A stretch of 64,000 bases of DNA from Acidobacteriota bacterium (GTDB lineage Bacteria; Acidobacteriota; Terriglobia; Bryobacterales; Bryobacteraceae). Position numbers and translations under genes: made by a program. The first letter of the stretch is position 1; each line of letters begins with the position of its first letter. The notes beneath the pieces were generated by a model. That model was not told the DNA's origin, did no database searches, and saw only the letters and a program-made list of their open reading frames with translations. The DNA is taken from the NCBI GenBank assembly GCA_049325215.1, contig JBMOMB010000045.1, positions 8,158 to 72,157 on the forward strand, read 5' to 3'. Below, piece after piece: positions 4,218 to 38,843 of the stretch.

Positions 4218-4294
4218 GGGGAAGTAGCTCAGCAGGATAGAGCGTCCGCCTCCTAAGCGGAAGGTCGGCAGTTCGAATCTGCCCTTCCCTACCA
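4218..4294 (+). tRNA. tRNA-Arg (anticodon CCT), CCA encoded
   Basis: Manual cloverleaf: acceptor GGGGAAG/CTTCCCT (G1:U72), D arm GCTC...GAGC, anticodon stem TCCGC/GCGGA with loop CTCCTAA, T arm GGCAG-TTCGAAT-CTGCC, discriminator A, then CCA. Confidence 0.9.
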
Positions 4295-4305
4295 TCCATC
4301 CTCCC

Positions 4306-7300
4306 GTGCCGGAAAAGCCGTTCGTCCACCTTCACTGCCACACCGATTACTCGCTGCTGGACGGCGCGTGCGAGATCTCGCGCCTGATGAAGCTGGTGCA
4401 GCGGCTGCAACAACCGGCGGTGGCGATCACCGACCATGGGAATCTCTTTGGAGCGGCGGAATTCTTCTTCGCCGCCCAGCAACACGGCGTGCACCCGGTG
4501 ATTGGCTGCGAAGTCTACGTGACGCGGCAGGACTGCCGGATCAAGGATGAGACCAACAAAGGTTACAACCACCTCACGCTGTTGGCGGAGACGCAGGAAG
4601 GCTACCGAAACCTGGTGAAGCTGGCCACCACGGCCAGCCTGGAAGGCTTCTATTACAAACCGAGGATCGACAAAACGCTTCTTGCCCAGCACAGCAAAGG
4701 GCTCATTGCGCTATCTGGCTGCCTGAAAGGCGAGATCAGCGAAACGCTGGAAGCAGACCGGTATGAAGAAGCGCGGCGGCTTGCGCATGAGTATGTGGAC
4801 ATCTTCGGCCGGCAGAATTTCTTCCTCGAGATCCAGCATCACAGTCTGGACAAAGACAGGAAAGTAATGCCGCTCACGTGCCGGCTCTCGATGGAGACCG
4901 GCATCCCGCTGGTGGCCACCAATGACGCTCACTACCTGGAGAAGTCCGACCACCGGGCGCAGGATATTCTCACCTGCATCAATTCCGGCGCAAAGGTCAG
5001 CGACGCCAAGCGCATCAGTTTTGAAACCGAGGAGTTTTATCTCAAATCGCGCGACGAGATGCTGGCCATTTTTCGCGAAGTGGAAGATGCGCTGGACCGC
5101 ACATGGGAGATCGCCGAGCGCTGCCGGGTGCGGCTGGAAAAGGTCAAGGACAGCTTCCCGCGCTTCGATGTTCCGCCCGAGCACACCACCGACACGTACT
5201 TCGAGTATGTGACGCGCCAGGGATGGGAGCGGCGCCGTGCGCGCCTGGAGCGGCTGGCAGCCGCCGGGCGCCTGCGCCACCCGATTCCGGAGTACGAAGA
5301 CCGGCTGGAGCGGGAGATCCGGCTGATCCAGCAGATGAAGTTCTCAGGCTACTTCCTGATCGTCTGGGACTTCATCCGGTATGCCAAATCGAAGGGCATT
5401 CCCGTGGGGCCGGGACGCGGGTCGGCGGCCGGGTCGCTGGTGGGCTATTGCCTGGGGATCACCGACATCGATCCGCTGGAGTACGGGCTGCTGTTTGAGC
5501 GCTTCCTGAACCCCGAGCGCGTCAACATGCCCGATATCGACATCGATTTCTGCACGAGCCGGCGCGGCGAAGTGATCCAGTACGTGACTGAGAAATACGG
5601 GCGCGACCACGTGGCGCAGATCATCACGTTCGGCTCGCTGGCGGCGAAGGCGGCCATCAAGGACGTCGGCCGCGTGCTGGATCTGAGCTTCGCCGAGACG
5701 GACCGCATCTCGAAGCTGGTGCCCGCCGACCCGAAGATGACACTGGAGAAGGCGCTGGCCGAAGAGCCGGACCTTGCCCAGATGGCCGAGAAGGACCCGA
5801 AGGTGCGCGATGTAATCGACATTGCGCAGCGCATTGAAGGCATGGCGCGCAACGTGGGTGTGCATGCCGCAGGGGTGGTGATCTCCCCGGTGCCTCTGGT
5901 GGAGCTGGTGCCGCTTCACCGGACGGCGAAGAACGAAATCGTCACGCAGTTCGACATGGAACGCCTGGAGAAGCTCGGGCTTCTCAAGATGGATTTTCTC
6001 GGGCTGACGACGCTGACGATCATCCACGACACACTCGAGCTCATCCGCCGCAACCGGGGCGAAGACCTTCGTGTGGAGGAATTACCCCTGGAGGACAAGG
6101 AAACATTCGAGCGGATCTTCGCGCACGGGCTCACCGACGGCGTGTTTCAGTTCGAATCGCCGGGCATGAAGGATATGCTGCGGCGGGCGAGGCCGGAAAG
6201 AATTGAAGACCTGATCGCGCTCAACGCCCTCTACCGTCCCGGACCGATGCAGTTCATCGACGACTACATCGACCGCAAGCACGGCAAGAAGCCCGTCACG
6301 TACGACATTCCGCAGCTCGAGCCGATCCTGAAAGAAACCTTCGGGCTGCCCATTTACCAGGAACAGGTCATGCAGATCGCGCAGGCTGTGGCCGGCTACA
6401 CGCTGGGCGAGGCCGACATCTTGCGCCGCGCGATGGGCAAGAAGAAAACGGAGGAGATGGACAAGCAGCGCGCGCGCTTCCTGGCCGGGGCGCGCGAGCG
6501 GGGCATCAGCGAGCGGAAGGCGGCGGCGCTGTTCGAGACGCTGGAACCCTTCGCGAAGTACGGCTTCAACAAGTCACACTCGGCGGCGTACAGTTACCTG
6601 GCATACATCACGGGGTATCTCAAGGCGCACTACTCGGTGGAATTCATGGCGGCCCTGTTGACCTCGGAAACAGGCAACACCGACAAGGTGGTCAAATACA
6701 TCAACGAGTGCCGTGAACTGGGCATCGAGGTGCTGCCGCCGGACGTGAATCAGTCGGACTATCACTTCACCCCGGTGGGACGGGACAAGATACGCTTCGG
6801 CCTCGGAGCCGTCAGAAACGTCGGGCAGTCGGCGGTGGAAGCCATCGTGGCCGCACGGCGGGAGGGTGGACCGTTCGTATCGCTGGACGACTTCTGCGAA
6901 CGCGTGGATTTGGGCGCCGTGAACCGGCGCGTGATCGAGAGCCTGATCCGCGCCGGTGCGATGGACTCGCTGCCGGGCACGCGGGCGCAGTTGATGGCGC
7001 TGGTCGAAGAATGCATGGAATCGGGGCAGCGGGCGCAGAAAGACAGGTTGAGCGGGCAAGCCGGGTTGTTCGGCGGCTTCGATACCGCCGCGGTGGGAGT
7101 TGCGCCGGCCCGCGCGCTGCCGAGCGTGGACGACTGGACGCCGCAGGAGAAGCTGCGCGGCGAGAAAGAAACCATTGGCTTCTATGTCAGCGGCCATCCG
7201 CTGGACGAGTTCGCCTGGAAGGTGCGCGAGCTGACCGCGCTCGATAGTGCCGGCCTCAGCGGGCTGGAACGGGGTGCCGAGGTGGCGATCTGCGGCATCG

Positions 7301-11923: not shown

Positions 11924-12010
11924 TGGTGCGGTCGAGAGGACTTGAACCTCCACGGGATTGCTCCCGCTAGCACCTCAAGCTAGTGCGTCTGCCAATTCCG
12001 CCACGACCGC
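11924..12010 (-). tRNA. tRNA-Leu (anticodon GAG), long variable arm, CCA encoded
   Basis: The reverse complement reads GCGGTCGTGGCGGAATTGGCAGACGCACTAGCTTGAGGTGCTAGCGGGAGCAATCCCGTGGAGGTTCAAGTCCTCTCGACCGCACCA. The anticodon stem is CTAGC/GCTAG with loop TTGAGGT. It is a type II tRNA located 26 nt downstream of secG. Confidence 0.9.
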
Positions 12011-35713: not shown

Positions 35714-35752
35714 GCGACGATCTTGCGAAGTTCATTTTCCGGGAGGTCTCTC

Positions 35753-37177
<1,425 letters not shown>

Positions 37178-37196: not shown

Positions 37197-37736
37197 TCAC
37201 GCCTCGCGCTTTGTGGAAAGACGCGCCTTCCTCCTGCCCTTACTGGCGGGCCCAGCCGATTTTTGTGGAGCTTCGGGCATCACGCGCAACAGCGGCAAGG
37301 GCGGCAGCATCAGTCCCATGCGCCAGGCTGTGTTGTGCACCAGCTCTCGCAGATAAGGCCAGCAGTGGAACAGGACGTTACCCTTGCGAAACGACGCGAG
37401 TTGCTCCTCTGAAGGTTCGAAATTTGGGGCTAAGGCGTAGATGGCCTCAAGGCAACAATCCAATTCGAAGAGCGTCAGCTCAGCTTCGCCAGTCAGCGTG
37501 GCGCTCATCTTCAGGGCCACATCGAAACGGGCAGTGTTCACCTTGATCTCGCTGCTGCGCGTCTCGTGCTGCAGGTCGAGCCGCAGCGCTCCGCTGGCCT
37601 TTTCGGGCAGATCCCCCGACCGGGCATGAAATTCTTTAAGGCGAATCGAGTCGAGAACCGAGTGCTGCTGGAATTCCGCCACAAGCTTCAGTTCCGACTC
37701 AGGCTGCTTCAGGAGGAAAGGATTCGTATCCGTCAT
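37197..37736 (-). CDS. SecB-like chaperone of a toxin-antitoxin-chaperone (TAC) module
   Basis: The track ORF 37197..37790 is trimmed to the ATG at 37736, which overlaps the antitoxin stop (ATGA). The 179-aa product has a beta-rich N-terminal part and a SecB-like core [30 protein letters not shown] (compare SecB ILFPYAREAI...GFP.L.L.P.NF). A basic C-terminal tail follows. Confidence 0.8.
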
Positions 37737-38263
37737 TGAATTCGACGCGGCAGAGCCCCGGGCCCAAGGTAAGCGGATACACTCTGCCATGAAAACCCCT
37801 GCTGCTGTGTGAGCGCTCCGCTATCGAGGACGATCGTCAATTTCTCGGGTTGCCGTAGCCCCAGACGGCTGCGGAGCGCATCGTAGTTCGCACGGGCGGC
37901 TTCCGGATCAGTCTTCAGCCGGATCAGGTCGCTGCTGCTCTTGTCGGGAAGGACGCCCGTCTCCCACCGCTTCACGCTGGCTTCGCCCACACCGAGGTAC
38001 TCAGCGAACTCCCTCTGGTTCATCCGCAGGCGGCGACGCGCCTCCCTGATCTCTTCTGTCGTCAGGATGCCCGCCAGCCGCCGGTAGATCTGATCCGTCA
38101 GTCGGCCATGCTCATCGGCCTGATCCAGCGGGATCGTTATGAACCCGCAGTGGCTGCACACATTCACTCTGTCCTCGACCTCAAACCGGATGCCACGGAT
38201 GTCATGTGGCACCCTGGTCAATTTCCGTTGCATGCGGCCCTTCCCGCATTCCACACATTTCAT
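37733..38263 (-). CDS. MqsA-like antitoxin (YgiT-type Zn ribbon + XRE HTH) with C-terminal extension
   Basis: 176-aa ORF. Two CxxC pairs (MKCVECGKG ... VCSHCGF) are followed by an HTH (LRMNQREFAEYLGVGEASVKRWETG). About 45 extra C-terminal residues follow (…[37 protein letters not shown]). Confidence 0.85.
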   Translation of the reverse strand: MKCVECGKGRMQRKLTRVPHDIRGIRFEVEDRVNVCSHCGFITIPLDQADEHGRLTDQIYRRLAGILTTEEIREARRRLRMNQREFAEYLGVGEASVKRWETGVLPDKSSSDLIRLKTDPEAARANYDALRSRLGLRQPEKLTIVLDSGALTQQQGFSWQSVSAYLGPGALPRRIQ

Positions 38264-38277
38264 GGCGCAGCTCTCTC

Positions 38278-38622
38278 TTAGTAGTCAGGCGGATGGAGGG
38301 AGTAGACCACCACCGTAGGTCGCCGCCCTTCCAGCCGGAACTTCAGGTAGACCCTCCGCCCAAAGTATGCGGACTCCCATACAAACGCATGCCCGGGAGG
38401 ATCCCACGGATCAAAGACCGGCTCTTTGTCGGCAAGCGCGATTTCTCCCGCTGCCGCGCGGACCGCTGCAGCGATATTCCCCATGGATAGATCCAGTTCG
38501 CGGGCACGATCATGCACCCGAGGATGGATCTGGATGCGGCCTGCTTGGGCTGCCTCACGAAAGTGCCGCAAAGCCAGCCGCGTGGAATCCGCATCCTGGT
38601 GCTTCTTGGGAGATCGGCTCAC
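38278..38622 (-). CDS. MqsR-like toxin (putative ribosome-independent mRNA interferase)
   Basis: 114-aa ORF with a GTG start and a GGGAGGG SD 6 nt upstream. By eye it is colinear with E. coli MqsR: STRLALRHFREAAQAGRIQI / HTRLSQVKKLVNAGQVRT, ARELDLS / ADELGLD, GRRVYLKFRL / GQVYLKITV, VVVYSLH / LIVSFKE. Toxin precedes antitoxin, as in mqsRA. Confidence 0.75.
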   Translation of the reverse strand: MSRSPKKHQDADSTRLALRHFREAAQAGRIQIHPRVHDRARELDLSMGNIAAAVRAAAGEIALADKEPVFDPWDPPGHAFVWESAYFGRRVYLKFRLEGRRPTVVVYSLHPPDY

Positions 38623-38635
38623 CGGCCGCCCTCCC

Positions 38636-38653
38636 TGGTATCATTTGATACCA
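38636..38653. promoter_or_regulatory. 8-2-8 perfect palindrome TGGTATCA-TT-TGATACCA, candidate antitoxin operator of the TAC operon
   Basis: This perfect inverted repeat directly abuts the toxin SD (38629..38635). A TTGACC (-35-like, 38671..38666 on the minus strand) lies just upstream. Confidence 0.5.
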
Positions 38654-38843
38654 AATCGCAGACACGGTCAAGCAGGACAAGTTGCAAGCTCTTCAAAAAA
38701 AAGGAAAAATAATTCTCCAAGCGCCTGTACGCTGTGATGCTTCTTTGTTGCGGTGGCATCGCTTCGGAACGCCTGGACAACTGGTTTCAGGATGATGCTA
38801 TCAGACCCTCGGCCAGCCCGCCTGCTCCCGACGCAACAGCGGT

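Follow-up and report, generated by a model that had tools for sequence, protein, structure and literature searches.

Toxin-antitoxin-chaperone (TAC) modules that are built on the MqsRA toxin-antitoxin (TA) pair have been recognised since 2012 (Sala et al.). The MqsRA-type TAC of Vibrio cholerae RC385 (Vcho-TAC) has been shown to work, and its chaperone-addiction (ChAD) region can be transferred (Bordes 2016, PMC5105189). In the MqsRAC system of Escherichia coli C496_10, neutralisation of MqsR needs both MqsA and MqsC, and the system defends against phage T2 (Vassallo 2022, PMC9519451). The binding of a ChAD peptide is seen in the Mycobacterium tuberculosis structure 5MTW, which contains residues 104-EVPTWHRLSSYRG-116 of the antitoxin HigA1. 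The main contacts are made by W108, R110 and Y114, and G116 also matters in vivo. The pocket for Tyr114 is lined by L154-P155-P156-L157 of the SecB-like chaperone Rv1957 (Mtb-SecB-TA), and these residues are required for TA control. The DNA described here is a 64-kb stretch (the window; 64,000 nucleotides of contig JBMOMB010000045.1) from a Bryobacteraceae-like (Acidobacteriota) chromosome. Three genes on its minus strand very probably constitute a tripartite type II TAC module of the MqsRA type, situated on a small insert of low GC content.

This reading is based on the homology and the fold of all three proteins, on the order and overlap of their genes, and on the joint presence of an antitoxin tail and a chaperone. 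Purifying selection, the conservation of a palindrome and the working precedents among MqsRA-type TACs support it further. The genes follow each other in the order toxin, antitoxin, chaperone, all in the same orientation and tightly spaced. The toxin gene (38622..38278) encodes an MqsR-like protein of 114 amino acids with a predicted RelE/MqsR fold, which represents a divergent subfamily; all members found here come from Acidobacteriota. After a gap of 14 nt follows the antitoxin gene (38263..37733, 176 amino acids), which specifies an MqsA-family protein composed of an N-terminal zinc ribbon, an XRE-type helix-turn-helix (HTH) and a C-terminal extension. The ATG of the SecB-like chaperone gene (37736..37197, 179 amino acids) overlaps the antitoxin stop codon (ATGA). 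The toxin starts with GTG, at a position where the orthologues show ATG, and a Shine-Dalgarno-like GGGAGG (38630..38635, minus strand) stands 7 nt before it; relatives keep this site as GGGAG, GAGGAG or similar. A longer chaperone open reading frame (ORF) starting at 37790 was rejected, because the orthologous proteins begin with MTDTNPF, at the ATG at 37736. The three co-directional ORFs that the earlier note had placed here are confirmed. Twenty related loci were compared, of which 19 extend past the antitoxin gene (L006 ends inside this gene and was not scored). The complete trio recurs with the same layout in 13 of the 19, and the other six have the toxin and the antitoxin only. The ratio of nonsynonymous to synonymous substitution rates (dN/dS) against the orthologues is 0.11-0.33 across all three genes, with dS values close to saturation and with homologue sets that are small and phylogenetically clustered.

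Judged by its sequence, the antitoxin belongs without doubt to the MqsA family. It matches Pfam MqsA_antitoxin PF15731 with an E-value of 1e-12 (48.8 bits, cut-off 30) and NCBIfam TIGR03830 with 88.2 bits (cut-off 61.8), the latter over residues 3-122 only. HTH_3 is matched by residues 72-105. The two CxxC pairs are at positions 3-6 and 36-39, and all four cysteines, C3, C6, C36 and C39, are unchanged across 17 homologues. The MqsA/YgiT architecture described in the earlier note, with two CxxC pairs followed by an HTH, is borne out.

About 54 residues of the antitoxin extend C-terminally past the MqsA profile match. This extension (residues ~123-176; 37897..37736, minus strand) is the candidate ChAD region. 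It contains the hydrophobic stretch LTIVL (142-146) and, further on, the segment Q-G-F-S-W159-Q-S-V-S-A-Y165-L-G167. In all ten aligned full-length antitoxins that are linked to a chaperone, the tail combines a short run of hydrophobic residues (LTIVL, EVIYV, ELIFV and similar) with a tryptophan; in the same alignment of 17 sequences, none of the six chaperone-less antitoxins carries either feature. The tryptophan lies 13-16 residues past the hydrophobic stretch in nine of the ten, and is displaced by 4 residues in L019. In close orthologues, an aromatic residue usually follows six residues past the tryptophan. The Trp, Tyr and Gly of the window tail (W-x5-Y-x-G) are spaced exactly as W108, Y114 and G116 of the M. 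tuberculosis HigA1 ChAD. As this likeness was noticed after the fact and concerns a short motif, the resemblance of the tail to the ChAD peptide is only suggestive. The tail evolves fast, the proportion of nonsynonymous differences (pN) being 0.42-0.68 as compared to 0.13-0.18 in the antitoxin core, which agrees with the reported variability of ChAD regions (Bordes 2016, PMC5105189).

The third protein is SecB-like, as both profile and model comparisons support, and resembles the TAC chaperone Rv1957 more closely than it does the SecB of protein export. Its single sequence matches Rv1957 weakly (E 0.0011). A profile of 12 homologues aligns residues 17-149 with residues 16-162 of Rv1957 (5mtw_C) at E 4.7e-8, and the E-value against Haemophilus influenzae SecB is 0.014. 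The AlphaFold (AF2) model of the chaperone has a mean predicted local distance difference test score (pLDDT) of 84.5. The four 5MTW chains are its best matches in the PDB (Foldseek E 4.8e-10 to 2.8e-9, template modelling (TM) scores 0.73-0.84), and the SecB structures of H. influenzae and E. coli come next (E ~1e-6). These comparisons uphold the identification of the third gene in the earlier note. The SecB-like core motif quoted there is present at residues 120-149, in the long helix 1, a region that harbours the one motif common to all SecB-type proteins (Sala et al.). Residues L144-P145-P146-L147 of the window chaperone (codons at 37296..37307, minus strand) align with the L154-P155-P156-L157 pocket residues of Rv1957. 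P146 and L147 are invariant in the family, and L144 and P145 are nearly invariant. The C-terminal tail of the chaperone (residues ~155-179; 37200-37274) is predicted to be disordered and is strongly basic, as it is in all orthologues. The tail of canonical SecB is acidic.

The assignment of the toxin to MqsR is the weakest of the three links. Pfam, NCBIfam, PADLOC and PHROG contain no match to the protein. Among the PDB sequences, no match is found with the single sequence or with a profile of 8 sequences, and an hhalign comparison with E. coli MqsR alone is not significant (probability 2.4%). The signal came only from a broader profile and from the structure model, in three lines of evidence that are independent of one another. 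A profile of 29 sequences has MqsR as its best match among PDB sequences, over the full length (E 0.054). When the toxin family profile is compared with an MqsR profile built from an alignment of 24 MqsR proteins, hhalign gives a probability of 90.4% and an E-value of 1.4e-6, with columns 12-111 aligned to columns 4-96. The AF2 model of the toxin (pLDDT 86.5) has E. coli MqsR, chains 3hi2_B and 3hi2_D, as its best PDB matches (Foldseek E 3.6e-3 and 7.3e-3); the MqsR matches have a Foldseek probability of 1.0 and TM scores of 0.55-0.67. RelE, HigB2 and other toxins of the RelE superfamily follow. The family is rare: when 1.84 billion cluster representatives were searched exhaustively with HMMER (E up to 0.001), 36 proteins were recovered. 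E60, S84 and H110 are invariant and K94 is nearly invariant across 29 distant homologues, and Lys94 aligns with Lys83 of MqsR. The purifying selection on the toxin (dN/dS 0.11-0.21) and the invariance of Glu60, Ser84 and His110 argue that it is functional. The available evidence thus supports an MqsR homologue by predicted fold and by gene position, which lies outside the family model and lacks most of the catalytic signature. The earlier note had described the protein as MqsR-like; the profile alignment and the fold bear this out, and the Pfam match and three of the four catalytic residues are missing. The profile searches that the note had proposed gave a similarly divided result. The MqsA antitoxin and HTH_3 models were matched, and the MqsR and SecB models were missed, because the first and third proteins have diverged too far to be recognised by Pfam or NCBIfam. 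A subgroup of distant toxin homologues (L006:1-871; P0042, P0043, P0045, P0046) has about 45 additional, conserved residues at the N terminus (W-x-ARA..LD..G-F..Y).

The relationship between the antitoxin tail and the chaperone is best seen by comparing orthologous loci. The loci L007, L008 and L012, which have no chaperone, are orthologous to the window locus: the epimerase gene, the dihydrodipicolinate synthase (DHDPS)-like gene and gltD are shared, their proteins being about 90% identical. Their DNA homology to the window ends at antitoxin codon 124-127 and resumes just past the chaperone stop codon, about 700 nt of the window being replaced by about 190 nt. A replacement also separates L019, which has the complete TAC, from L008, which has the TA pair only. 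The toxins of these two loci are 94% identical and the antitoxin cores 90% identical, and 770 nt stand against 223 nt from antitoxin codon ~118 to the end of the chaperone gene. Such pairs of TAC and TA-only loci are also found among the more distant relatives (L009 or L013 versus L011 or L014; L015 versus L016), which hold the module in other genomic contexts. The chaperone gene was never found without the TA pair among the related loci. The tail and the chaperone behave as one unit, since the presence or absence of one goes with that of the other, also at orthologous loci. Judged from these alignments, relatives have lost or gained the chaperone and the antitoxin tail as one swapped cassette. 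This pattern agrees with the experimental transfer of chaperone addiction (Bordes 2016, PMC5105189).

The antitoxins of the three orthologous TA-only loci end in a different tail, which is basic, of low complexity and about 45 residues long, and terminates in KRSSARL (L007:4735-4923, L008:4697-4919, L012 ~4730-4912). It is conserved among the three loci and has no detectable similarity to the ChAD or to the chaperone segment. A deletion that would have fused the antitoxin to the basic tail of the chaperone was considered as its origin and rejected, as no DNA or protein similarity above shuffled controls was found. All genome-collection matches are metagenome-assembled genomes, which with a single exception bear the label Acidobacteriota (Bryobacteraceae, Bryobacterales, Candidatus Solibacter). 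The exception, L008 (CAYWJB010000009.1), is titled 'uncultured Arcobacter sp.'; with the window it shares 88-94% identity in the epimerase, the DHDPS-like protein and GltD. The label of this bin is probably wrong, because its flanking proteins match the window, whose proteins match those of the Bryobacteraceae genome L007 equally well.

A perfect 18-bp palindrome, TGGTATCA-AA-TGATACCA, is situated at 38636-38653 (38636..38653, no strand assigned) and ends 14 nt before the toxin start codon. The sequence is unique in the window, and none is expected by chance even when 2 mismatches are allowed. Its 14-bp core, GTATCAAATGATAC, is kept by each related locus that extends upstream of the toxin gene, 14 of 14 loci examined, down to a toxin identity of 38%. 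In 12 of 13 loci scored, the core begins 32-36 nt before the toxin start; for L007, the automatically called start was misplaced. In L006, where the toxin is extended at its N terminus, the palindrome is kept further upstream, before the extension. Such conservation suggests that the palindrome is probably the operator of the antitoxin, and autorepression by the antitoxin through this site is the natural reading. The -35-like hexamer TTGACC (38666..38671, minus strand) keeps a conserved distance to the palindrome: close relatives have CTTGAC 12 nt upstream of it, and more distant ones CTTG(C/T). A spacer of 17 nt from TTGACC would place the putative -10 element, TCAAAT (38648..38643, minus strand), at the centre of the palindrome. 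We infer this placement of the -35 and -10 elements, since a consensus scan found neither a promoter nor a terminator at the module. About 50-60 nt upstream of the palindrome lies an AT-rich block (~38690-38715, minus strand GAATTATTTTTCC...) with the motif GAAnTAT(A/T)T; most related loci have it at a comparable distance, in varied genomic surroundings. The block may serve as an UP element, as a second promoter or as a further binding site.

By combining these observations, it is possible to propose how the module might operate. Toxicity, RNase activity and its specificity, operator binding, chaperone dependence and the trigger are all elements that we infer. The product of the first gene would be an MqsR-like endoribonuclease toxin, which the MqsA-like antitoxin would neutralise by means of its zinc-ribbon domain. 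The antitoxin dimer would bind with its HTH to the palindrome TGGTATCAAATGATACCA, which overlaps the -10 region, and thereby repress the operon. The tail would leave the antitoxin liable to aggregate and undergo proteolysis unless it is held by a tetramer of the SecB-like chaperone. The tail segment with Trp159 and Tyr165 would occupy the pocket that the conserved LPPL motif lines in the chaperone. Titration of the chaperone, or degradation of the antitoxin, would then free the toxin and cause growth arrest. Possible triggers are stress or phage proteins, the latter as in E. coli MqsRAC and CmdTAC.

Several observations weigh against the TAC reading. Pfam MqsR (PF15723) matches neither the window toxin nor any of its 29 homologues at E up to 1, and the Foldseek E-value of the toxin model, 3.6e-3, is modest. 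The catalytic residues of E. coli MqsR are K56, Q68, Y81 and K96, and none of the four varies among the 24 aligned MqsR proteins. Only one of them is kept in the window toxin, Y81 corresponding to Y92. In the hhalign alignment, K56 and Q68 fall on Glu67 and Ala79, and K96 falls on the invariant His110. The chaperone, for its part, has no Pfam or NCBIfam match at E up to 1, Pfam SecB PF02556 included. The tyrosine at position +6 from the tail tryptophan is conserved only in close orthologues. The E. coli MqsA site is ACCT-N(2-4)-AGGT, a sequence different from the palindrome. Finally, the orthologous module of L001 (L001:4143-5588; GCA_973409965.1, contig CCXFWI010000059.1) looks decayed. Codon 147 of its antitoxin is an in-frame stop, beyond which a trace of the tail (..PWLNE..) survives. 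Its toxin shows WDQRSFAFRY instead of the conserved motif WDPPGHAFVW, which is lost, and the reading frame continues to 126 amino acids. The L001 chaperone is intact (74% identity). The decay of this orthologue, the altered catalytic residues, the lack of any match to an MqsR model and the fixed chromosomal position across related genomes would all fit a module that has been domesticated or inactivated, in which the toxin keeps the MqsR fold but has ceased to be an RNase or has another activity, and the locus serves mainly as an autoregulated transcription factor with partners. We consider this unlikely, as the toxin is under strong purifying selection, the polar residues E60, S84, H110 and K94 are retained across distant homologues, His110 occupies the place of the catalytic K96, and an intact antitoxin is always retained. 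Moreover, active-site residues vary widely across the RNases of the RelE superfamily. Less probable still is an ordinary two-gene MqsRA pair that happens to lie beside a general SecB, of export or housekeeping type, with no functional link between chaperone and antitoxin. The SecB fold of the third protein, the significant Foldseek matches of canonical SecB structures and the intact appearance of the chaperone-less TA pairs are compatible with it. Against it stand the overlap of the chaperone start with the antitoxin stop, the coming and going of the chaperone with the antitoxin tail and never without the TA pair, and its closer similarity to Rv1957 than to export SecB, with no match to Pfam SecB. 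In addition, solitary SecB proteins are typical of alpha-, beta- and gammaproteobacteria (Sala et al.).

The same parts could also have another role, in which the module acts primarily in abortive infection, a phage protein competing for the chaperone or inactivating it, rather than in stress response or persistence. This is a real possibility, although we would not give it even chances. The protection that E. coli C496_10 MqsRAC gives against T2 is lost when extra chaperone is supplied (PMC9519451); TACs have been reported as defence systems. The window module is a low-GC insert with other genomic contexts in more distant relatives, and it evolves faster than its flanks (~63% versus ~90% protein identity). 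These features have to be set against the results of the searches for defence and mobile elements. Neither the toxin nor the chaperone has a PADLOC match, and no defence or mobile-element genes were seen adjoining the module. The toxin and the chaperone have no tblastn match in plasmids, and IMG/VR contains no member of the family among the viral contigs, the one weak tblastn match there not being confirmed by hmmsearch. More than 120 viral matches to the 16-mer core of the palindrome were dismissed as chance, since none of them adjoins a toxin or a chaperone gene; one unrelated MqsA-like ORF occurs among them.

A further proposal, which extends the TAC reading and is advanced only tentatively, is that the toxin founds a distinct, Acidobacteriota-centred branch of MqsR-like proteins with a rebuilt active site (Glu60, Ser84, Lys94, His110), combined with a mobile ChAD-chaperone cassette. 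The specificity of cleavage, or its dependence on the ribosome, could then differ from that of MqsR, and the cassette would have been swapped into or out of near-identical TA loci at least three times. If this is true, these swaps constitute a natural series for studying the gain or loss of chaperone addiction.

The surroundings of the TAC module are as the earlier note had described them, with gltD on one side and the heparinase operon on the other. The gene gltD (35723..37177, plus strand) converges on the module and lies 19 nt downstream of it. Upstream, behind a spacer of 221 nt, are the DHDPS-like gene, the epimerase gene and the heparinase II/III gene, all on the minus strand. The GC content over the module (37200-38800) is 0.57-0.61, as compared to 0.66-0.70 in both flanks. 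The 64-kb window contains no second copy of the toxin, the antitoxin or the chaperone, and no canonical MqsR elsewhere. RNA scans of the window detected no tRNA or Rfam element near the module; the sole RNA genes detected, tRNA-Arg(CCT) at 4218-4294 and tRNA-Leu(GAG) at 11924-12010, are both distant from it.

Among the known systems, Vcho-TAC and E. coli C496_10 MqsRAC have the same gene order as the window module, namely toxin, MqsA-type antitoxin and SecB-like chaperone. Vcho-MqsA is also 176 amino acids long and has a C-terminal extension, with its ChAD at 136-176 (PMC5105189). By analogy, the logic of these two systems would be expected here too, with neutralisation taking place only when both the antitoxin and the chaperone are available. 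In this comparison, which was made from published descriptions, the window module differs by its toxin, which lies outside the MqsR Pfam model and has a histidine in place of the catalytic Lys96, by the host phylum Acidobacteriota and by the basic tail of its chaperone. The palindrome sequence also differs from those of the known MqsRA-type TACs. The HigB1-HigA1-SecB-TA system of M. tuberculosis (Rv1955-1957, 5MTW) provides the closest solved relative of the chaperone, both by profile and by fold. The residues of its LPPL pocket are conserved in the window chaperone, and the W-x5-Y-x-G spacing of its ChAD, 108-WHRLSSYRG-116, equals that of the window antitoxin tail. However, its TA pair is HigBA, whereas the window pair belongs to the MqsRA family; Arg110 of its ChAD is replaced by Ser161 in the window antitoxin, and the identity between the chaperones is only about 20%.

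The two-gene MqsR/MqsA system of E. coli (3HI2) has in common with the window module the toxin-first order, an antitoxin made of a zinc ribbon and an HTH, the fold and the full-length profile alignment of the toxin, and a palindromic site in the promoter region. It differs in the sequence of this site and in having neither a chaperone nor an antitoxin tail, both of which the window module has, and its catalytic K56, Q68 and K96 are not conserved in the window toxin. The DNA-contacting Asn97 of E. coli MqsA aligns by eye with Ala95 of the window antitoxin. With export SecB (PF02556; E. coli 1QYN, H. influenzae 1FX3), the window chaperone shares the fold and the conserved helix-1 motif. Unlike export SecB, it goes unmatched by the Pfam model, its gene forms part of a TA operon, and its tail is basic rather than acidic.

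The novelty ascribed to the module by the earlier note was overrated, because MqsRA-type TACs have already been tested in V. cholerae RC385 (PMC5105189) and E. coli C496_10 (PMC9519451), and the understanding of how TAC systems work is not changed by it. What is new here is the conserved palindrome, the swap of the tail and chaperone cassette at orthologous loci, and the W-x5-Y-x-G motif in the tail. The palindrome is a concrete target for antitoxin binding assays. TA-only and TAC versions that share one chromosomal site, their toxins reaching 94% identity, represent a natural comparison for the joint acquisition of tail and chaperone. Standard models fail to recognise two of the three parts, so that modules of this sort are annotated as hypothetical proteins and TACs outside Proteobacteria and Actinobacteria are undercounted. 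The window locus combines all the features by which a TAC is recognised at the level of sequence: the gene order, the MqsA-family antitoxin, the operonic SecB-like chaperone and the antitoxin tail. It can be regarded as a divergent addition, in soil Acidobacteriota, to the experimentally validated MqsRA-chaperone systems.

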